Shown here: positions 2,795 through 21,507 of the stretch, piece by piece | Numbering within the stretch: the first letter of the stretch is position 1 | How the letters are laid out: each line of letters starts with the position of its first letter | NCBI GenBank assembly: GCA_002505325.1 | Contig: DAUV01000105.1 | Location: forward strand, 8,482 to 38,636 | Length of the DNA stretch: 30,155 bases | Direction of reading: 5' to 3' | Source: Euryarchaeota archaeon UBA623 | GTDB lineage: Archaea > Thermoplasmatota > Poseidoniia > Poseidoniales > Thalassarchaeaceae | Notes under the pieces: generated by a model | What the model was told of the DNA's origin: nothing | Seen by the model: the letters and a program-made list of their open reading frames with translations, nothing else | Databases searched by the model: none | Program-made: the position numbers and the translations under genes

Positions 2795-2913
2795 GGCAAT
2801 GCACCATAACTAGCACTTGTGAATCCATCGAAGCGGCACTGTCATCTCTTCTTGCTGAACTAGACACTATACTTTGATTCACGTATGGCGTTGAAGAATG
2901 TCCAATCATTGAA

Positions 2914-2927
2914 CCAAGTCACTTATG
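2914..2927 (+). promoter_or_regulatory. Putative BRE/TATA box of the tandem-dockerin gene
   Basis: CCAAGTCACTTATG ends 25 nt before ATG 2953, a spacing typical of a leaderless archaeal transcript. A near-identical copy lies at 3770-3783. Confidence 0.55.
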
Positions 2928-2952
2928 TCTGGCACATCGATGGAACCTGTTC

Positions 2953-3570
2953 ATGGACCGAACAGTGGACCTAACAATCGCTGCGCTGATCTTTTTGGCT
3001 GGCACAGCAGGCCTCGTTTCCGGTGAGGATATCGGAGACGTTGAAACAACGAATGATATGGATGACGAGTCAGCTGAGGCTGCACTCATCGACGCGCGTT
3101 ACCTCCGCGGTGATGCCAACGACGATGGAAGTGTAGATCTCGGTGACTTCATTGTGATGGCACAGTACATTGCCGGATACGGCAGGGCTCCAGCCTCGAT
3201 GGTTCAGGCAGACATCAATGGCGACCGTTCAGTCGACGTGCTGGACTTGGTCATCCTGGCTGACTACCTATGGGGGGGAGACGAGTCTGATTCCGGACCT
3301 CAATCTCTGGACAGCAGCACCACTAAGGCCAGCAAGACCTCTGTGGAGGTCTGTGACAGCGAGTCTGTGCGAGTGCTACGTGGTGACGCGAACGACGATG
3401 GAAGCGTAGATATCGGCGACTTCATTGTGATGGTGCAGTATATCCTCGGTTACGGGGACGCACCTGCCTCGATGCAGGGAGCCGACATCAACGGCGACCA
3501 CACGGTCAACGTGCTCGACATAGTGATGTTAGCAGATCACCTATGGGGTGGTCAGTGCGAGCGCTGCTAA
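2953..3570 (+). CDS. Secreted or anchored protein made of two type I dockerin domains
   Basis: Hydrophobic leader (IAALIFLAGTAGLV), then two 59-aa domains. Each has paired Ca-binding loops, GDANDDGSVD(L/I)GD and ADINGD.(S/T)V(D/N)VLD, followed by helices. The protein ends in CERC. Confidence 0.88.
   Translation: MDRTVDLTIAALIFLAGTAGLVSGEDIGDVETTNDMDDESAEAALIDARYLRGDANDDGSVDLGDFIVMAQYIAGYGRAPASMVQADINGDRSVDVLDLVILADYLWGGDESDSGPQSLDSSTTKASKTSVEVCDSESVRVLRGDANDDGSVDIGDFIVMVQYILGYGDAPASMQGADINGDHTVNVLDIVMLADHLWGGQCERC
3103..3552 (+). repeat. Intragenic tandem duplication of the dockerin domain (3103-3279 and 3376-3552)
   Basis: The two 59-aa units align without gaps, 47/59 identical by manual count. 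Confidence 0.92.
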
Positions 3571-3590
3571 GCATATAGCCACACAATACG

Positions 3591-3615
3591 CTGAGTCTTC
3601 TTTGTAAGAACTCAG
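3591..3615 (+). terminator. Hairpin just downstream of the dockerin gene (possible terminator)
   Basis: CTGAGTCTT-ctttgt-AAG(A)ACTCAG forms a 9-bp stem with a single bulge, starting 20 nt after the TAA. There is no long U tract. Confidence 0.3.
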
Positions 3616-3633
3616 TGCTGCAACCAAGCGCGT

Positions 3634-3695
3634 GCCTTCGCGCCGTCTACTGCCCTCTGTTATGGGTCCCTCAAGTAGGGGACGGTTGCGAAGGC
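3634..3695. other. Long intergenic stem-loop of unknown function
   Basis: GCCTTCGCG-CCGTC pairs with GACGG(T)TGCGAAGGC (about 14 bp, one G-U pair, one bulge). It extends with TACT/AGTA and encloses an inner GCCC/GGGT hairpin. Confidence 0.45.
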
Positions 3696-3769
3696 CGCCA
3701 AATGAGATGAATAGAGAGCTCACTCACCACGCGATATCAGTGGGCTTGATGCAGAGGTGACTCAAGGAC

Positions 3770-3783
3770 CCAAGTCGCTTATG
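3770..3783 (+). promoter_or_regulatory. Putative BRE/TATA box of the microprotein gene
   Basis: CCAAGTCGCTTATG is 13/14 identical to 2914-2927 and ends 26 nt before ATG 3810. Confidence 0.55.
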
Positions 3784-3809
3784 ATGGATATGCTGATGAT
3801 TACTGCTTG

Positions 3810-4013
3810 ATGGACCGAAACCTGGACCTACAAATCGCCGCCCTGATTTTTATGAGCGGCACGCAAGCCCTAGTCTCCGGTTCCGAGGAAGGAGACGTAG
3901 GAACGACGAACGCCCTTACCCTAGTGGAGGAGGATCTCGAGGAACCGATTCCCGCCCCGAGGCCGCGTAGCACCTCGTTTCCACTGTTCCGACCCATAGG
4001 GCCGACAGTCTGA
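3810..4013 (+). CDS. 67-aa microprotein sharing its N-terminal 34 aa with the dockerin protein; Pro/Arg-rich tail
   Basis: MDRNLDLQIAALIFMSGTQALVSGSEEGDVGTTN aligns ungapped with MDRTVDLTIAALIFLAGTAGLVSGEDIGDVETTN (23/34). Nine of the identical codons differ only synonymously. It has its own promoter copy. Confidence 0.72.
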   Translation: MDRNLDLQIAALIFMSGTQALVSGSEEGDVGTTNALTLVEEDLEEPIPAPRPRSTSFPLFRPIGPTV

Positions 4014-4074
4014 GCAGGAAATGTCCAACCATCTAACCAACCGCTTGATATTCTCCAAGCCGTTGGCCCTCAAC

Positions 4075-6522
4075 ATGAACCGGAGTCCACGGACTGCAAT
4101 TCTAGTACTGCTGATGATGCTGAGCTCAGGCTGCCTAGGAGCTATAGATGATATCGATGATATCGACGACGATGTCATCGATCCGATTCTTGACTGGCTT
4201 GAGGGCGAGTACCCTCGGCTGGACCTACCTACCCGTGAGCGCACCTCACCAGTGCTCGACATATACGACGAGTGCGAGATTCTGCTGACGGACCTTCAGG
4301 ACTCAATCTACAACGAGATGCTGGTCGCGCTGGACCAGCAGGCGTACTGGCACTGGGCCGGCCCCGTCTGGCGCGGCGGCTGGTTGGAAGATGATGTGAT
4401 GGTGGAGATGGATGGCGCGCCCATGGCTGCCGAAGATGGATCGGCTGATTTCGGGTCAAACACCGATGATACTAGCCGTGAGGGCGAGTACTCCGAGACC
4501 AACAACCAGGAGGAAGGCGTCGACGAGGCTGATTTTCTGAAGACCGACGGTTACCACATCTACATGCTCAACGGCAACTTGCTGGTGATTATGGGCGTCC
4601 CCGAGTTTGGCGAGCTTACACTCGAGTCCAACATGAGCGTGCAGGGCTATCCGATGCAGATGATGCTTGATGGTGACAGACTCGTCATCGCTTCTTCGAT
4701 ATACTACTGGAACCTTCCAGTCGATGATCCGCTTCGGGAACTGATGTCGGAAGAGGTCACCGTTAACTATCCTGGGGAAAAGGAGTACTCCTACACCTAC
4801 ACGCGCGTTCAGAACCTAGTGAAGTACACCGTAGTCGACATCTCCGACAGGACTACTCCAGAGGTCGAGCGTGAGATCTACATCGAGGGTAACTACCACA
4901 CCGCGAGACTGGTCGACGGGACTATGCGCTCGGTGACCCATCTGTGGACATACATCGAGGGTATGCGTACTTGGGTCTCCTTGCCTGATACCTACTGGGA
5001 GACTGATTCCGACGAGGAGAGGATGGAGATTTGGAACGAGAGCATGGAAGAGACCATCGCCGCCAATCGGGCCATCATAGACGATTTGACCCTAGATGAC
5101 TTCGCCCCACACATCTACGAGGTTGGAGAAGACGGCTTGTTCCAGCATCCGATTAGTTCGGGCGACTGTAGCGAGTACTCGGCCAGCGCTGACAGTGCCG
5201 GTCGAGGATTCTCGACCATCATGACAATCCAGATGCTAAGTGACGACTCTGAAATGGAAGTTGACCACATCACATCCTCGTGGGCACACGTATACGCATC
5301 TCAGGACGTCATGGTGTTAGCAGAACCGGCCAACGACTGGTGGTGGTTCTGGCGTAACTTCGGTTGGGATGACGCTACTAACATACACGTCTTCGACATC
5401 AGTGATCCTTCCGAGACGACTTATGTGGCTTCAGGCAGGATTGATGGCACGGTGCAGGATCAGTTCTCGCTCTCGGAGTACAACGGGGTCATCCGTGTCG
5501 CCTCCACTGAGGACGCATGGGACCGCTGGTGGCTAGGGACCGAGGAATCGTCCGGACCAACCAACAATGTGTTCACCCTCGTCGCCATGGAGTGCATGAT
5601 TCCTGAGGGATGTGAGGGCGACTCCAGTGAGCTGATTCAGATCGGCCACGTCGGTGACATCGCCGAAGGTGAACGTATCTGGAGCGCCCGCTTCGTGGGC
5701 GACCGCGCCTACCTAGTCACCTTCCGCAACATCGATCCACTATGGGTCATCGACCTCACTGATCCGACCAATCCAGAGATACTCGGCGAACTCGAAGTTC
5801 CGGGTGTCTCGACCTACATCCACCCGGTTGATGCGAACACTCTGTTGACCATCGGTATCGGGCCAGGGATCGATGGAGAGGGGCTTGACTGGTCCGTCAC
5901 ACAGATTTCCCTATTCGATGTCAGTGATCCTACCAACCCGGTGCTCGCTGACTCACTACCACTGTCTCCGGCCTACGAGGACGATAGTTGCGATGAGTGG
6001 GGATGCGGCTGGTCGTGGTCATACTCCGAGGCCACTTACGAGCACAAAGCGTTCACCTATTGGGCGCCTGAACAGTTGCTCGCAGTACCCCTGTCCACAT
6101 ACCGTTACACCTACGACGAGGTCACCATCGACGGGCGTACATACACCTACTCCGGATATGAGTTCGTCTCAACACTCGAACTCATCGACGTAGACGTCGA
6201 GAGCGGTACTCTCAGCACCCACGGAATGGTCAACCATTCCGAGTTCTACAACGAGGACGGCCTGTCAGGCTGGTGGGGTGGTTCGACCAGTATCCGCCGA
6301 TCAATTTTCATGGGCGACTACATCTACGCCTTCTCTACCGCTGGCGCCTCAGTCCACAGAACCGACGACCTCGAGTCCATGGTCGAACTTGAGATTCCAG
6401 GATACGACGAGCCAGAGGTCTACTACTACGAAGATGAAGGCGAGGCTACCGATCCAGAGACCACCTCGTCTGATGGCGAAGACCGAGAGGAAGACGAGGA
6501 CTCCGCAACCGTAGAGGGCTAA
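4075..6522 (+). CDS. Acidic lipoprotein with a beta-propeller domain (Beta_propel/COG4880-like)
   Basis: Start moved to ATG 4075, giving MNRSPRTAILVLLMMLSSGCLG (lipobox SGC). Family-type motifs: TNNQEEGVDEADFLKTDG.HIY, DQFSLSEYNG.IRVAST, ERIWSARF.GDRAYLVTFR.IDPL.VIDL.DP..P.ILGEL..PG.S.YIHP and SIRRS.F.GDYIY. Confidence 0.88.
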   Translation: MNRSPRTAILVLLMMLSSGCLGAIDDIDDIDDDVIDPILDWLEGEYPRLDLPTRERTSPVLDIYDECEILLTDLQDSIYNEMLVALDQQAYWHWAGPVWRGGWLEDDVMVEMDGAPMAAEDGSADFGSNTDDTSREGEYSETNNQEEGVDEADFLKTDGYHIYMLNGNLLVIMGVPEFGELTLESNMSVQGYPMQMMLDGDRLVIASSIYYWNLPVDDPLRELMSEEVTVNYPGEKEYSYTYTRVQNLVKYTVVDISDRTTPEVEREIYIEGNYHTARLVDGTMRSVTHLWTYIEGMRTWVSLPDTYWETDSDEERMEIWNESMEETIAANRAIIDDLTLDDFAPHIYEVGEDGLFQHPISSGDCSEYSASADSAGRGFSTIMTIQMLSDDSEMEVDHITSSWAHVYASQDVMVLAEPANDWWWFWRNFGWDDATNIHVFDISDPSETTYVASGRIDGTVQDQFSLSEYNGVIRVASTEDAWDRWWLGTEESSGPTNNVFTLVAMECMIPEGCEGDSSELIQIGHVGDIAEGERIWSARFVGDRAYLVTFRNIDPLWVIDLTDPTNPEILGELEVPGVSTYIHPVDANTLLTIGIGPGIDGEGLDWSVTQISLFDVSDPTNPVLADSLPLSPAYEDDSCDEWGCGWSWSYSEATYEHKAFTYWAPEQLLAVPLSTYRYTYDEVTIDGRTYTYSGYEFVSTLELIDVDVESGTLSTHGMVNHSEFYNEDGLSGWWGGSTSIRRSIFMGDYIYAFSTAGASVHRTDDLESMVELEIPGYDEPEVYYYEDEGEATDPETTSSDGEDREEDEDSATVEG

Positions 6523-16439: not shown

Positions 16440-19400
16440 TTAGTCCAGTTTGGGTGCTCGAGGTATCTCGTCCTCGTCTTCGAATACCGGTACGGATGGC
16501 AGTTCAACCGGAGTATTCTGCTGCCCCATGAGCGCATTCAAATCAGGTGCGGAGGGCAAATCGTAGTCCTGAAACTCTGGTGAGAGTGAGAACTTCTCTG
16601 GCTTCAGATTGTACGCCTCGTAAGCGTCTTTGAGTTTGCGTTTGTGCGATAATCTTCCCACGGCGTAGACGCAGCCGCCAATCACGGACAGTAGCACCAC
16701 GAGAATCGCAGCGAGTCCAGTAGGGGAAGTGACGTAGGAGAGTAACTTCTCTGAGAGTGTCTCCGGCGGTATCCATACATCCATATCTATGTCCCAGATG
16801 AAGACAGTAGTCTGCCCCGAGTCTACTAGGGTAGCAGTGATCTGCTGTGGCCCGCTACCTTGGTCGCACAAGTAGATGGTTAGGGTAGTGTCCCCTGCCT
16901 CACAGTCGATAGACTCGATGACGACCTCCCTCCCATCGAAGCTGACATTCTCCGTCAATGTGTAATCACCAAATTGCCATGACAGCGAGACGACGACATT
17001 TTCTGGTATCGAGTCTATACTGAGAACAAGACTCTCATTGACTGCGTCCCACAAGTGTACTTGGCGGAAGTCAGGGATAGTTGTGACCAAGTTCTTCCTA
17101 CTCAATCCATCATCGACTGCATCGTTGCAGTCGTCATCTCGGCCATTCCAAGTCTCGACTCCTGCGGGGTTGATGGTGCCGACAAGGTCATCACAGTCCT
17201 CAAAGTCATAGAATCCGTCCTCATCGCGATCGAAGTTGAACTGCTTGGGGTCTGAACCACTGACCATCACCTCATGACCGTCCGACATCCCGTCTGTGTC
17301 GCTGTCGGCCAGTTCCGGGTTAGTGGTAAAGTTGTGAAACTCGTCGAAGTCAGTCAGTCCGTCGTCGTCACTGTCGAGTTCGAAAAAGTCCTCGTCAACG
17401 ACTTCGTCACAGTCATTGTCCTTGCCATCGAGGACTTCGGGCTTGAGTGGCGCTCTATCGAAGTCCTCGTCTTCACAGTCTTGGAACCAGTACCAGCCGT
17501 CGGAATCAGCATCGTCGTCGTGGACCAGTGGATCGGCCCCCATCGAAGAGTACTCGTTGTACTCTAGTCCGTCGGGTAATCCGTCGTCGTCAGTGTCTCC
17601 ATCAAGGTGGTCGGTGGTGATATTGTGATACTCGTCGTAGTCGGTCAACCCATCATTGTCTGTATCACGGGTCCAATAATCCTCGTCGATTAGAAAGTCA
17701 CAGTCGTTGTCGAAGCCATCGAGTAGTTCGACGTGACCAGGGGATCGTTCACCATCTTCGTCATCACAGTCCTCAAACCAGTACCACAAGTCTGAATCAG
17801 AGTCGGGGTCATACACTAACGGGTCTGAGCCAAGGGCGGCGTAGGTGTTGACCTCCTCACCGTCATCCAATCCATCATCGTCGGTGTCGGAGTCCATGTA
17901 GTCGGTGCCGTGGACGTGGTATTCGTTCCAGTCCTTGAGTCCGTCGTTGTCTCTGTCAGTGAAGTTGTAACCCTCATCGACAAAGGTGTCGCAGTTGTCA
18001 TCGATATCGTTCAGTAGCTCCGGCCGGCCTGGATTGACATTTGGGTCTGTATCATTACAGTCATTGAAGTGATAAAATAAATCGGAGTCGGCATCAGGAT
18101 CGTACCAAAGAGGGTCACTCTGCCAGAAGTTAATTTCAGCACCATCGCTCAGCCCATCATCATCAGTGTCGGAATCGAGTGGGTCGGTACCAGTAGTAGT
18201 CACTTCAGACGAATCGCTCAGCCCATCAAGGTCGGTATCAACAGCCAATGGGTCTGTTCCATGTACCATCACTTCATCGAAGTCGCTCAATCCATCATCG
18301 TCAGTATCGGAGTCATAGGGATCAGTACCGTATACCAGCGTCTCATTCTCGTCGCTCAGCCCGTCGTCATCGTGGTCGTAGTCTATGTCTACTCCATGCA
18401 ATAATAACTCCCATGAACCTAGTGTGCCAGTTCCGCCCGAAGATGTGTCACGTACCTTCAGCGTCCAATTTCCCAATGAAGACTCATCCCAGTGTCTTAC
18501 AGTGCTAAACATCCAGTTAGAGTAGTGGTTTCCATTGTCGTTGCGCGACTCAGCCAACCAAGACTCAGTTCCGGAAGGAGAGACTAGTACGATATCGAGG
18601 TCTCCTCTCGCAGTGTGAGTTATGTCGACCACCACATCTACGCTCTCGAGTGAGTAATCGTTTGGAACCATGGTCGTGAACTCGGTCCAATCAGGCGTAT
18701 CATCAGGGATGTCCGTCGAAGGAGTATAGGGCCCGTAGGTGGAGTTCAACTCATCTCCTACGTTAATCCAGTTCTCGGCTACAGAGACGGCAGCGCCGGC
18801 ATCCACCACTCCGAAACCGTACTTATGTGAGACGTCGTGCCCGGCGCCGTTTACGTCCCATGACCAGTCACTGGCATCATTCATGCGCGCACTGTTGACT
18901 AGAACGTGTTGCACATCCCTCCAAGTCAGGTTTTCGTTGGCGTCGAGTATCAGCGCAATGACTCCAGCGGCCAACGGGGTGGCGCTAGAAGTGCCGCCGA
19001 AGGTATGAGTCACGTTGCCGCTGCTGTTGTAGCCGCCTGTGCCGGAGATATCGGTCGTGGTGATGCCTTCGCCGTCACCATTGGAGTGAGCTGCGACGAG
19101 TATGTTCGCCCCCGGCTCAGCGTAATAGGATTGGTCACCGTCATGGTTGATTGCGGTGACGGCTATGGTGAAGCGACTGTTGGCGTAACCGTCGTAGTTT
19201 GAGTTATCATCCGAGCCAAGGCCGTTGCCTGCAGCCCATGTGATTAGGTTACCCAATCCCTCACGTCCGTTGTAGGCATCACTTTCGAAGGCCGCCAGAG
19301 TTAGCGGCCCGGGCGCCTCTAGGGTCTGACCGTCATCGGCAGGGCCCCAAGAATTAGTGTAAATATCGATATCGTCACTCTCGTAACTAAGCGCATCAGC

Positions 19401-20225
19401 TTCAGTCGCATCACCAGCCCAGCACGCAATCAGCGTCGAGCCAGCAATGGTTGCGTTGAATGCGACTCCGGTGACGTCCAGTGCGTTGTTCCCGACGGCA
19501 GCAGCCACTCCGGCTACGGCCGTGCCGTGACCGTTCCAGCTGGAAGGACTGGGATCACTATCGTCGTCACACCAGTCGTACGAGAGTAGCGATGAGTAGT
19601 GGGGACTGAGGTCGCTGTGGGCATGATCGAGCCCGTCATCGACCACACTGATTACTACCCCAGATCCGGTGTAGGTGTCCCATGTGCTGGTGACGTTGAC
19701 ATCCTCTCCCGATAAGCCGTTGGTCTGGCCGGTGTTCTCAAGGTGCCACTGCGCGGAGAACTCCGTGTCGTTCGGCGAGAGTCGCGGTTCCTGCTTCTTA
19801 TCCAACAGTGGCGAGAATGATTCAATTTCTCCCGCTTCAAGAGACTGCTGGAGCAGAACCATCGACTTGAGTGGGTTGTCGAAAACCCAGATGTAGGCTC
19901 CCCGAAGAATCGGAGCCGGTTCGCTCAATTCAGGCGCTGCCTTAGTCAATTGGTGCTTTTCAAGAGGAACTCTTGTGACGACAAGCCACTCGTGCACTTC
20001 TTCGAGGTCACCCTCCGAGTAAACACTCATGTCCCCGACTCTTTCAAAGGCCAACTGCACGGCCCGTGAGTATGTCGGCAGTATCTCGTCGCCCTCTATT
20101 CCAAGGCCTACCGGCTGCTCCGCACCACCAGCAATCACGCCCCCAAAGGGGGCGAATAGGAGGATGATGAGTACTGCTAGCGCCGTGCGCATGACCGAAC
20201 TCGAACGCATTCGACATTTAGCCAT
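16440..20225 (-). CDS. Membrane-anchored kexin/furin-like S8 protease with P domain and Asp/Cys-rich Ca-binding repeats
   Basis: Signal region RTALAVLIILLFAP; triad VVDDG, NGHGTAVAG and GGTSSATP; oxyanion AAGNG; SWGPADDG; P domain (VDVVVDITHTARGDLDIVLVSPSGT...GNWTLKVRD); DxDxDGLxD and DCxD...DNDCD repeats; C-terminal TM helix. Start moved from 20294, which lies inside the upstream gene, to ATG 20225; 20210 and 20192 are alternatives. Confidence 0.92.
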   Translation of the reverse strand: MAKCRMRSSSVMRTALAVLIILLFAPFGGVIAGGAEQPVGLGIEGDEILPTYSRAVQLAFERVGDMSVYSEGDLEEVHEWLVVTRVPLEKHQLTKAAPELSEPAPILRGAYIWVFDNPLKSMVLLQQSLEAGEIESFSPLLDKKQEPRLSPNDTEFSAQWHLENTGQTNGLSGEDVNVTSTWDTYTGSGVVISVVDDGLDHAHSDLSPHYSSLLSYDWCDDDSDPSPSSWNGHGTAVAGVAAAVGNNALDVTGVAFNATIAGSTLIACWAGDATEADALSYESDDIDIYTNSWGPADDGQTLEAPGPLTLAAFESDAYNGREGLGNLITWAAGNGLGSDDNSNYDGYANSRFTIAVTAINHDGDQSYYAEPGANILVAAHSNGDGEGITTTDISGTGGYNSSGNVTHTFGGTSSATPLAAGVIALILDANENLTWRDVQHVLVNSARMNDASDWSWDVNGAGHDVSHKYGFGVVDAGAAVSVAENWINVGDELNSTYGPYTPSTDIPDDTPDWTEFTTMVPNDYSLESVDVVVDITHTARGDLDIVLVSPSGTESWLAESRNDNGNHYSNWMFSTVRHWDESSLGNWTLKVRDTSSGGTGTLGSWELLLHGVDIDYDHDDDGLSDENETLVYGTDPYDSDTDDDGLSDFDEVMVHGTDPLAVDTDLDGLSDSSEVTTTGTDPLDSDTDDDGLSDGAEINFWQSDPLWYDPDADSDLFYHFNDCNDTDPNVNPGRPELLNDIDDNCDTFVDEGYNFTDRDNDGLKDWNEYHVHGTDYMDSDTDDDGLDDGEEVNTYAALGSDPLVYDPDSDSDLWYWFEDCDDEDGERSPGHVELLDGFDNDCDFLIDEDYWTRDTDNDGLTDYDEYHNITTDHLDGDTDDDGLPDGLEYNEYSSMGADPLVHDDDADSDGWYWFQDCEDEDFDRAPLKPEVLDGKDNDCDEVVDEDFFELDSDDDGLTDFDEFHNFTTNPELADSDTDGMSDGHEVMVSGSDPKQFNFDRDEDGFYDFEDCDDLVGTINPAGVETWNGRDDDCNDAVDDGLSRKNLVTTIPDFRQVHLWDAVNESLVLSIDSIPENVVVSLSWQFGDYTLTENVSFDGREVVIESIDCEAGDTTLTIYLCDQGSGPQQITATLVDSGQTTVFIWDIDMDVWIPPETLSEKLLSYVTSPTGLAAILVVLLSVIGGCVYAVGRLSHKRKLKDAYEAYNLKPEKFSLSPEFQDYDLPSAPDLNALMGQQNTPVELPSVPVFEDEDEIPRAPKLD
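17100..18385 (-). repeat. Intragenic array of alternating DxDxDGLxDxxE (TSP3-like) and DCxDxD..PG..E..D..DNDCD..VDE modules
   Basis: Four Cys-containing modules (DCNDTD...DDNCD, DCDDED...DNDCD, DCEDED...DNDCD, DCDDLV...DDDCN) alternate with runs of D(T/S)DDDGL(S/T/D/P)D units in the translation. Confidence 0.85.
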
Positions 20226-20250
20226 TCGTCTGTAGCGTGAAGCACCTGCT

Positions 20251-21507
20251 TCACGACTGAGGGAACTCCGAGATGGCTGCATGGACCTCTTCATCAGTCA
20301 TCATTCTACGCTGTCCCTTGGCCACCTCAAACAAGTTCGATACCAGTTCGTCAGTCGCTACGTAGCCGTTCTGCTGTAGCCACCAGATTATGTTGGAGCG
20401 TCCACTCATGTGACCTATCCGGATTACCTGCTGCAATCCATAGTCCGCAGCAGGTACTCCAGAGTAAACGCGGTCTGCGAGCCACTGGTCGCCCTTCTTC
20501 ATCGCCTTGACCACCGCGGACGCGTGTACACCTGTTCCGGTCTCGAAGGCGTCCTCGCCGAATACAGGGTAGTTGCGAGGCAGAGCAACTTCGACGTATT
20601 CGTGCGCCTTACGCACGTAATCGTTTAGGGCAGTCAAGTCATTGCTGATTACCCCCATAAGACTGAGATTTACAAGCGTCTGGTCGAGAGGGGCGTTTCC
20701 GGCCCTCTCGCCCACTCCAAGAGCAGTTCCGTGGATAACATCGGCCCCAGCCTCGTAGGCAGCGAGATTGTTGGCAACCCCCAGTCCACGGTCTTGATGT
20801 CCGTGCCAGTTGACCTCGATGTCTCGGCGCTTCACCCCTGCATCGGGTATCACTTCGTCCTGAATGAAAGAGAGCAACTTGTGGACTCCGTTGGGAGTAA
20901 CGTGCCCGCATGTGTCGCAAACACAGATTCGGTCAGCACCAAGCTCCAGTGCCCTAGTGTATACGGCTTTGATCTCCTCTGGTTTACTGCGCGTGGTGTC
21001 CTCGGTGACAAACATCACTGGGATGTCGTTGTCGATAGCGAATGAAACAGCCTTCTCAGCCGTTGAGATAATCTTCTCCATCGTCCAGTCTTCAGCATAC
21101 TGACGAATTGGGCTGGTCCCTAGGAAGGCGCTAGCCTGTATCTGCCGTTCGTGCTTGGCCTGCAGATCTACCAGCGGTTCGATATCGCTCACCACTGTGC
21201 GAACAGCGCATCCGGGGCGCAGCGCGTAGTCGTTCTCACCCATGTGAGTGAGCATTGCGTCGATATGACCGACATGGAATGGGCCAGCACCAGGAAGTCC
21301 GAGATCCGCTTTCTGGATTCCAAGGGTCTCCATGAAGTCAATCAACTCAATCTTCTGTTCGATGGTCGGGTTGCGAGCACTCGGGCTCTGCAGGCCATCA
21401 CGCAAGGTCTCGTCGTCGAACCACAATTCATGAGGGTGGTTCGACCCATTACGCTCAATCTCGTAATCTATCTCGTTCCAATCGTAAATCAGGTCCTGCT
21501 CATCCAT
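20251..21507 (-). CDS. DRE-TIM metallolyase, LeuA/homocitrate-synthase family, without a C-terminal regulatory domain
   Basis: DETLRDGLQS, FVTEDTTRS, VCDTCGHVTP, WHGHQDRGLGVAN (HxH), GVGERAGNAPL, FETGTGVHASA and IGHMSGRSN. SD GAGGTG. Substrate cannot be assigned from sequence alone. Confidence 0.85.
   Translation of the reverse strand: MDEQDLIYDWNEIDYEIERNGSNHPHELWFDDETLRDGLQSPSARNPTIEQKIELIDFMETLGIQKADLGLPGAGPFHVGHIDAMLTHMGENDYALRPGCAVRTVVSDIEPLVDLQAKHERQIQASAFLGTSPIRQYAEDWTMEKIISTAEKAVSFAIDNDIPVMFVTEDTTRSKPEEIKAVYTRALELGADRICVCDTCGHVTPNGVHKLLSFIQDEVIPDAGVKRRDIEVNWHGHQDRGLGVANNLAAYEAGADVIHGTALGVGERAGNAPLDQTLVNLSLMGVISNDLTALNDYVRKAHEYVEVALPRNYPVFGEDAFETGTGVHASAVVKAMKKGDQWLADRVYSGVPAADYGLQQVIRIGHMSGRSNIIWWLQQNGYVATDELVSNLFEVAKGQRRMMTDEEVHAAISEFPQS

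Follow-up and report, generated by a model that had tools for sequence, protein, structure and literature searches.

A promoter and leader-coding module with conserved mRNA hairpins shared by a microprotein gene and a di-dockerin gene of Thalassarchaeaceae (Marine Group IIb archaea)

We analyzed a stretch of 30,155 nucleotides (nt), hereafter the window, from Euryarchaeota archaeon UBA623 (contig DAUV01000105.1, positions 8,482 to 38,636, assembly GCA_002505325.1), a metagenome-assembled genome (MAG; 1.22 Mb in 128 contigs, 67% complete, 53% G+C) of the family Thalassarchaeaceae. In this stretch a gene for a protein with two dockerins is followed by a gene for a microprotein with a very similar N-terminal leader, and the latter by a gene for a beta-propeller lipoprotein (Table 1). 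Marine Group II archaea are abundant and uncultured, and little is known of how they express and export surface proteins. The two leaders, encoded by positions 2953-3054 and 3810-3911, align without gaps over 34 amino acid (aa) residues, 23 of them identical (73/102 nt), and nine of the identical residues use different synonymous codons in the two copies, exactly as a first-pass annotation of this DNA had reported. A tblastn search of the whole 1.22-Mb genome with one leader finds the other at E = 2.8e-10 and no further convincing copy; a regular-expression search for the GLVSG c-region and a covariance model likewise found no copies in this genome beyond the two, and a GLVSG ending is not general among its N-termini. 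Past about codon 36 neither blastn nor tblastx detects similarity between the two genes in any frame, in agreement with the earlier description of an abrupt stop followed by unrelated cargos.

Each gene also carries the sequence CCAAGTC(A/G)CTTATG (positions 2914-2927 and 3770-3783), which ends 25 and 26 nt ahead of the respective ATG, as had been described; with both strands counted, CCAAG-N3-CTTATG occurs at two sites in the genome, namely these two promoters. The first-pass annotation had allowed that the box might simply be the generic promoter of the lineage, but only its TATA-like part lies at a generic position. Specifically, the sequences upstream of 649 long open reading frames (ORFs) of the genome display a weak T-then-A signal at -30 to -25, purines at -34 to -31, and a G-rich Shine-Dalgarno signal at -11 to -8; T-then-A at -30 to -25 is where the archaeal TATA box of leaderless mRNAs lies, and the CTTATG(TC) part of the box falls exactly there. 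Given this TATA spacing, both genes are probably transcribed from the ATG itself as leaderless mRNAs. The conserved microprotein start is ATG 3810 rather than TTG 3807, as the preceding codon varies in orthologs (ttg, tcc, tca, ttc).

By sequence comparison the microprotein gene is real and old, and more widespread than its di-dockerin paralog (five genera versus two). A leader profile matched 85 of 301 genomes of the order Poseidoniales, and all but two weak matches fall in five genera of one family, Thalassarchaeaceae: g1 (11/11 genomes), g12 (16/18), g14 (19/22), g15 (22/24), and g4 (14/14), with no microprotein leader in eight other genera of this survey. Homologs of the microprotein are present in 82 of 149 family genomes searched, and a scan of species-representative genomes yielded 102 loci; the reading frame is never broken across about 100 species, and among 20 species-representative Thalassarchaeum genomes it is intact in every one, at 66-93% identity. 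Pfam has no match for the microprotein. Conservation across genera is highest in its first 24 residues, where AALIF, G17, and L21 do not vary among 26 diverse sequences; behind these comes an acidic run with an (E/D)P-x-P motif, and conservation is poor over the final ~20 residues. Within the genus, the ratio of nonsynonymous to synonymous substitution rates (dN/dS) rises from 0.21 in the leader through 0.30 in the acidic part to 0.34-0.41 in the tail; the value of about 0.2 for orthologous leaders denotes purifying selection and upholds the protein-level constraint deduced earlier from the two copies alone. We also considered whether the microprotein could be the split-off N-terminus of an HVO_0163-like regulator, and rejected this: the composition is similar, but we saw no alignable homology and both genes coexist in g4 and g15. 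Two contigs labeled as bacterial carry the microprotein (NZKZ01000073, Acidiferrobacter sp., our locus L146; PBOU01000145, Planctomycetaceae, L147) and are probably mis-binned archaeal contigs.

The di-dockerin protein contains two Dockerin_1 modules (Pfam E = 2.5e-20), the sole dockerins of the genome. Full-length orthologs are found in 12 of the 20 Thalassarchaeum genomes, with one more present as a fragment cut by a contig end, and the paralog, the younger and narrower member, is limited to g1 and g14; outside the leader its dN/dS is 0.11. It has what we call a T8-type leader (LTIAALIFL[AV]GTAGLVSG) preceded by AATTGTCCAATC-N5-ACCAAG-N4-TTATGTC, and in two genera (Thalassarchaeum and g14) the promoter together with the first ~36-40 codons heads at least four cargos besides the microprotein, the di-dockerin among them. 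The T8-type cargos are the di-dockerin, an acidic protein with HNLF / VHDTLPPVISL repeats, a Cys-containing acidic protein of 162-211 aa, and acidic proteins of 94-97 aa. A profile search of 1.84 billion (1.84e9) representative proteins returned only 32 true clusters, mostly microproteins, in all of which the module is N-terminal: 27 match from residue 1, three have longer N-termini called (match from residue 17-18), and two have later starts called. The proposal that the module is reusable with variable cargos is borne out by further copies on at least five cargo types; the module is reused, within one narrow lineage. Its two promoter/leader subtypes, microprotein and T8, are consistently distinct across species, so that cross-species comparison gives no sign of gene conversion between them. 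The upstream box of di-dockerin type is common to all T8-type paralogs (di-dockerin, HNLF-repeat protein, and loci L078 and L079); the upstream motif of the microprotein is kept at the microprotein loci of all five genera and is unlike the T8-type box. This motif, TGCA-N4/5-TGA(C/A)(T/G)CA, lies ~45-60 nt 5′ of the microprotein ATG (window 3750-3764; loci L035 and L052-L083), and its palindromic TGACTCA may be a regulator binding site.

Some further observations concern the cargos. In two sister genomes an S15 X-Pro dipeptidyl peptidase gene follows that of the HNLF-repeat protein at a distance of ~40-50 nt (L033 2965-3279/3315-5258; L034 2789-3178/3229-5157), and in a third genome, G010, its gene is frameshifted after codon 29 (L036 2931-3041). 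The 67%-complete source genome has no Cohesin match; in 3 of 20 sister genomes, proteins of 1500-1740 aa have cohesin-like matches of 16-17 bits, below the cut-off of 24.1 (G015:C20:47918-48271, G006:C45:13993-14349, and G003:C1:3950-4303), and these large proteins are possible partners of the di-dockerin. Our literature search found nothing on Marine Group II dockerins or on the leader.

The first sign of RNA structure within the module was a strong suppression of synonymous change in leader codons 1-24. Specifically, i) the synonymous substitution rate (dS) of the microprotein gene is 0.11 in codons 1-24 versus 0.41-1.6 further downstream within the genus, and 0.02-0.03 versus 0.18-0.26 among close species; ii) the dockerin gene gives 0.12 in codons 1-24 versus 0.81 in the rest of the gene; and iii) in the same genomes the first 24 codons of the beta-propeller gene, used as the control in place of a GST-like neighbor found in only two loci, give 0.35 (close species) and 0.79 (genus). 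Synonymous change in the leader is 7-10 times below that in the signal peptide of the neighboring gene.

Covariation shows that three hairpins, H1, H2, and H3, are structured in the sense mRNA of the leader, and these hairpins are a new finding. H1, which takes in the third base of the AUG, is 86.9% paired with compensatory change in 4 of 5 pairs; H2 is 94.5% paired, and base 3 of the Ala11 codon and base 2 of codon 16 vary together (GC:42, CG:21). H3 in the dockerin copy is a stem of 11 base pairs (bp) with a 4-nt loop spanning the V22-S23-G24 and G28-D29 codons, and in the microprotein copy a 7-bp stem (CGUCUCC/GGAGACG) with an inner helix; folding codons 20-35 of 82 distinct sequences gives H3 for almost every one of them. 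In a gap-free alignment of 59 sequences covering the 11-bp stem and 4-nt loop, 88.6% of cells pair, compared with 31-60% after the 3′ partners have been shifted by 1-3 columns. Compensatory change on both sides occurs in 8 of the 11 H3 pairs, a result reached by none of 500 shuffles, and for the three helices together (75 sequences over 105 nt) 13 pairs carry double changes versus 7.4 ± 1.2 after shuffling (again 0/500), the significance of both tests being overstated by the relatedness of the sequences.

The compensatory changes in H3 are of several kinds: Ser23 UCC/Gly28 GGA becomes Thr23 ACC/ACU with a synonymous Gly28 GGU; Val22 becomes Ile (AUC) with a synonymous Asp29 GAU, in two separate clades; Val22/Asp29 become Ala22/Gly29 or Gly22/Ala29; and Ser23 AGC pairs with Ala28 GCU. 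They include changes that are explicable only by RNA constraint. In the g14 clade H2 (14 bp) and H3 (10 bp) are kept in a shifted register with 96.5% pairing, and the synonymous third positions of Ala11 and Gly17 covary. The many G.U pairs can form only on the sense strand of the RNA; an antisense RNA was considered, since the microprotein copy gives a fold with z = -3.7 on that strand, and rejected because this fold is not conserved across genera and the G.U pairs fit the sense strand. Rfam 15 has no matching family (the sole hit, radC RNA at 18.7 bits versus a cut-off of 40, E = 0.58, lies elsewhere in the dockerin gene), and a covariance model of the element retrieves only the loci already described, in those five genera. 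Neither the leader family nor the RNA structure is present in Pfam, Rfam, a protein-language-model atlas (no usable hit), or the literature searched.

The hairpins bear directly on the motif VSG-xxx-GDV, whose conservation past the hydrophobic stretch the first-pass annotation had noted correctly and had taken to argue for a sorting signal. The V22-S23 codons (GUC UCC) and the G28-D29 codons (GGA GAC) are reverse complements of each other; the motif is partly an RNA palindrome, and its conservation is largely explained by H3 because its codons are the two strands of that hairpin. The V-E-T-T residues that follow are conserved too, with no pairing partner found: directly after H3, GUUGAAACGACGA (V-E-T-T, at 3898-3909 and 3041-3052) is nearly base-invariant across the family. 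Conservation beyond a signal peptide can thus reflect RNA pairing, and need not mean a sorting motif.

Table 1. Features of the leader module, its two genes, and the adjoining genes (window coordinates unless a locus is given)
Feature	Position	Strand	Remarks
Di-dockerin promoter	2897..2929	+	upstream box AATGTCCAATC 2897-2907; CCAAG 2914-2918; TATA-like CTTATGTC 2922-2929 (-31..-24 from ATG)
Di-dockerin gene, 205 aa	2953..3570	+	T8-type leader, acidic linker, two type I dockerins, C-terminal CxxC
Dockerin-gene leader module	2953..3063	+	codons 1-24 signal-peptide-like; codons 25-37 acidic GDVETTN part
Microprotein promoter	3750..3783	+	TGCA-N4-TGACTCA 3750-3764; CCAAG 3770-3774; TATA-like CTTATG 3778-3783
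Microprotein gene, 67 aa	3810..4013	+	leader 1-24, acidic stretch with EEDxE(E/D)PIPAP, variable Pro/Arg tail
H1 (coding nt 3-19)	dockerin 2955-2971; microprotein 3812-3828	+	RNAalifold on 75 sequences
H2 (coding nt 28-51)	dockerin 2980-3003; microprotein 3837-3860	+	RNAalifold on 75 sequences
H3 (coding nt 63-88)	dockerin 3015-3040; microprotein 3872-3897	+	folding and 59-sequence alignment
Beta-propeller (PF09826) lipoprotein gene	4021..6522	+	Pfam E = 2.4e-117; 800-aa class
HVO_0163-like gene	G000:C36:4650-4832 (outside window; L099 1219-2097); L035 2369-3175; L072 2910-3914; L086; L090; L095	- (L099)	

At the protein level the leader is most likely a Sec-type signal peptide with an N-in/C-out orientation, probably cleaved after V/A-S-G. 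AlphaFold2 (28 homologs) predicts a single helix at residues 3-22 followed by disorder (mean predicted local distance difference test score 64). Its helix agrees with the h-region of a Sec-type class I signal, typically of about 7-15 residues, and so does its location at the extreme N-terminus. In four genera the apolar core of the microprotein-type leaders is 10 residues long and lies between Gln and Gln/Lys/Arg; in T8-type and g14 leaders the apolar residues number 17-21, with an apolar run of 18 aa in the dockerin gene. Membrane insertion energies, summed on the biological hydrophobicity scale of Hessa et al. 2005, are +4.5 to +8 kcal/mol for the microprotein leaders of every genus but g14, where the value is +1.9, and +0.2 to +3 for T8-type leaders, compared with +1.9 for the neighboring lipoprotein signal and +1.2 to +2.1 for true membrane helices of the same genome. 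The insertion of most microprotein-type leaders, weaker than that of the neighboring signal, speaks for cleavage of the microprotein leader rather than stable anchoring. V-S-G would place small residues at -3/-1, and the variants V-T-S/G, L-G-S, and A-S-V would also allow a site, in codons that are also under H3 constraint; the strongly acidic C-flank gives a charge difference that predicts N-in/C-out.

Other signal types fit less well. A class III (type IV pilin/archaellin) signal was rejected, there being no [K/R/D/E]-[G/A] motif directly before the hydrophobic stretch (Gly/Ala is absent from residues 1-9 of most leaders; Ala2 occurs in 2 of 26, and g14 has Ala5 in N-A-D), and Tat and lipoprotein signals were rejected for want of RR and of a conserved Cys in residues 1-30. 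A dedicated peptidase or anchor, as suggested in the first-pass annotation, was not identified.

We think it rather probable that these features together form a lineage-specific expression-and-export cassette of Thalassarchaeaceae, with export and cleavage as predicted steps. The cassette would comprise a leaderless-type promoter, a structured 5′ coding region of ~90 nt, and the encoded signal peptide of ~24 residues with ~12 acidic residues behind it. Its founding member would be the ~65-aa microprotein gene, ahead of the core beta-propeller lipoprotein gene in five genera; the cassette would then have been duplicated in Thalassarchaeum and g14 (some g14 MAG names read 'MGIIb-O1'), where the duplicate would head at least four other small proteins, acidic or Ca-binding and presumably extracellular. 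The peptide would act as a Sec-type signal, inserted N-in/C-out and cleaved after V/A-S-G, and its unusual conservation would come from dual coding, in which the same nucleotides form H1, H2, and H3 and are kept by compensatory substitutions. The dockerin is an extracellular Ca-binding type of module, in line with export.

A number of observations weigh against such a cassette. On the peptide side, i) the n-region lacks the positive charge of a Sec-type signal, being MDRxxD (net -1) in the source genus and MDQxLD, with no Lys or Arg at all, in g12, g4, and g15, in contrast to the lipobox signals of the same genome, whose n-regions are net positive in 17 of 21; ii) g15 has Lys/Arg at position 19, within the would-be hydrophobic span; and iii) no part of the microprotein is as well conserved as the leader, whereas in proteins with a cleaved signal the opposite usually holds. 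On the RNA side, iv) the folding energy of single sense-strand sequences is no better than that of shuffles (z = -0.2 and -0.1); v) RNAalifold found no consensus on 17 mixed sense-strand sequences, a consensus structure emerging only once the g14 register was separated and 59-75 sequences were used; vi) many paired columns are invariant (the shuffled mean is 79-83% paired); and vii) the shuffle tests are weakened by relatedness as stated above. Finally, the export signal, its cleavage, the transcription start, and the RNA structure are all predictions from sequence.

What the hairpins do is a separate matter. They may affect initiation on a leaderless mRNA, the stability of the mRNA or its 5′ end, or the pace at which the export signal is translated; 5′-terminal hairpins are known to stabilize mRNAs. 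Start-codon accessibility is a main determinant of leaderless initiation in bacteria (PMC8459731), and since H1 includes the third base of the AUG, control of initiation is one candidate role. A more ambitious proposal, which we advance only tentatively, is that the ~90-nt 5′ region is a functional RNA device of leaderless mRNAs which has co-evolved with the export signal and spreads as a portable promoter-RNA-peptide cassette, the hairpins gating initiation at the 5′-terminal AUG, protecting the 5′ end, or timing translation and membrane targeting. If so, the module would be dual-coding, and part of what looks like a peptide motif would in truth be an RNA palindrome.

The expression-and-export cassette must also be weighed against readings that place the conserved function elsewhere. 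The N-terminal helix could be an uncleaved signal-anchor or a helix-packing segment that tethers the cargos to the surface or docks on a membrane partner, for which the beta-propeller lipoprotein and the HVO_0163-like membrane regulator are candidates. The hydrophobic segment is indeed the most conserved part, with its invariant AALIF, G17, and L21; this segment has a mean pairwise identity of 0.72 compared with 0.48 for the neighboring lipoprotein signal peptide; the longer apolar spans of T8-type and g14 leaders, at +0.2 to +3 kcal/mol, resemble the membrane helices of the genome; and synteny with the beta-propeller gene is conserved in five genera. We nonetheless regard an anchor as unlikely, because the microprotein-type leaders of four genera offer only the 10-residue core at +4.5 to +8 kcal/mol, RNA pairing accounts for much of the conservation, and conservation is not significantly confined to one helix face (helical moment p = 0.076), on which ground a packing interface was rejected. 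That same RNA pairing could instead be what is chiefly conserved: the conserved unit might be primarily RNA, either a cis-regulatory 5′ end or a dual-function small RNA, with the short ORF an upstream ORF for the beta-propeller gene and the peptide sequence constrained mainly by RNA. The extreme conservation of synonymous sites in codons 1-24, the three covariation-supported hairpins (including pairs of two synonymous positions), the poorly conserved microprotein tail, and the closeness of the ORF end to the beta-propeller start (61 nt, or 8 nt) would all fit. Yet third positions change between paralogs and genera while the residues stay, and the frame is unbroken in about 100 species, which together imply selection on the protein as well; moreover, the same module heads a 205-aa dockerin protein under strong constraint (dN/dS 0.11 for the rest of the gene), the beta-propeller gene has a TATA-like box of its own and exists without the microprotein in eight genera, and Rfam has no match. 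We consider a primarily RNA-based explanation improbable.

Two further alternatives concern the microprotein as such. A conserved leader on a small gene, followed by a C-terminal tail that varies across species, and in some genera the adjacency of a membrane-bound helix-turn-helix (HTH) regulator, recall the precursor of a secreted signaling or antimicrobial peptide with a fast-evolving mature part, and the first-pass annotation had envisaged a leader/core arrangement akin to ribosomally synthesized and post-translationally modified peptides (RiPPs). We find no support for the latter and think a peptide precursor very improbable in general: tail dN/dS is 0.41 among close species, with no diversifying selection; the window contains no C39-peptidase transporter, radical-SAM, YcaO, or lanthipeptide enzyme; and the leader, which is hydrophobic and has no double-glycine motif (a RiPP or double-glycine bacteriocin leader, which is hydrophilic and ends in GG/GA/GS, was rejected on these grounds), also carries the 205-aa dockerin protein. 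That the resemblance is due to chance, or that the short ORF arose by truncation of a dockerin gene copy and is decaying (the pseudogene scenario raised in the earlier annotation), could be argued from there being only two copies in a 67%-complete genome, but to this we give practically no credence. The pair E value of 2.8e-10 speaks against chance, and the ortholog survey refutes decay: 20/20 genomes of the genus, and four more genera in which the dockerin gene is mostly absent, keep the ORF intact and under purifying selection, and no dockerin remnant is found in any frame downstream of the microprotein leader.

Comparison with known systems places the expression-and-export cassette among several partial analogs. 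Like Sec-type class I signals of archaea and bacteria, the nearest of these, the leader is N-terminal, with a short n-region, an apolar helix, small residues at the putative -3/-1 positions, and cargo of extracellular type; unlike them, its n-region is net negative, without Lys or Arg in three genera, it remains conserved for ~12 residues past the putative cleavage site, and its coding RNA is structured. The family-specific conserved signal peptides of Gram-positive surface proteins, YSIRK-G/S and KxYKxGKxW, come next and offer a parallel for a motif inside a signal that is common to unrelated surface proteins of one lineage, but they belong to another domain of life, have no sequence relationship to the leader, and bear their motif in the n-region rather than in the hydrophobic core (AALIF..G...L). 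We know of no special secretion route linked to the leader. Phr/ComC pheromones, bacteriocins, and conotoxin superfamilies combine a conserved signal with a variable mature part, and the likeness extends to a leader that outconserves the C-terminal part, small genes, and one leader with several cargos; here, however, there are no processing or transport genes near the leader, the tail is under weak purifying selection, and one cargo is a folded dockerin pair of 180 aa. SecM, MifM, and VemP are secretion-monitor arrest peptides with a conserved C-terminal arrest motif, and the microprotein resembles them as a small ORF with a predicted N-terminal export signal and an acidic, Pro-rich body directly upstream of a gene; it differs in that its C-terminal part is the least conserved, the downstream gene encodes a PF09826 beta-propeller rather than a Sec/YidC component, and that gene occurs without the microprotein in eight genera. 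As to the RNA, structured 5′ ends that govern leaderless or 5′-proximal mRNA function are comparable in that H1 includes the third base of the AUG, but hairpins lying wholly inside a signal-peptide coding region, conserved across about 100 species and without an Rfam match, are unlike those known.

The result is of interest in three respects. It adds a microprotein family that is conserved in about 100 species, looks unannotated, and is tied to a core surface lipoprotein; it offers a natural archaeal example of a promoter-plus-signal module reused for different cargos; and it presents covariation-supported RNA structure in the coding region at the extreme 5′ end of apparently leaderless mRNAs, raising the question of how initiation proceeds with the start codon partly paired.

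All 13 genera of the family have the beta-propeller lipoprotein gene, in single copy and as a core gene. The microprotein gene lies directly upstream of it in g1, g4, g12, and g14; in g15 an HTH gene intervenes in 2 of the 4 loci read. The true start of the beta-propeller gene is probably ATG 4075 (MNRSPRT..., lipobox SSGC) rather than 4021, since outgroup genera start there and a g4 ortholog has an in-frame stop just before the internal Met. A TATA-like sequence, TTGATATT, at 4045-4052 is at TATA distance from 4075, and the gene may thus have its own leaderless promoter rather than being translationally coupled to the microprotein, whose ORF ends 61 nt before this likely start and 8 nt before the longest ORF. 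In the genera without the microprotein, the gene upstream of the beta-propeller is an HVO_0163-like membrane HTH gene, the usual neighbor, or some other gene; the HVO_0163-like gene also adjoins the microprotein in g4 and g15. In its membrane-anchored double-HTH product, a hydrophobic segment at the N-terminus is accompanied by an acidic loop, a further membrane segment, and winged HTH domains.

The neighbors in the window are GT4, GT2, a GST-like protein, the beta-propeller, an amidohydrolase, RadA, an M3 peptidase, and Hel308. At 16440-20294 on the minus strand the window also encodes a 1284-aa subtilase (Peptidase_S8) with a proprotein-convertase P-domain, bacterial TSP3 Ca-binding repeats, and a MopE-type metal-binding motif, which is probably another large secreted Ca-binding protein.

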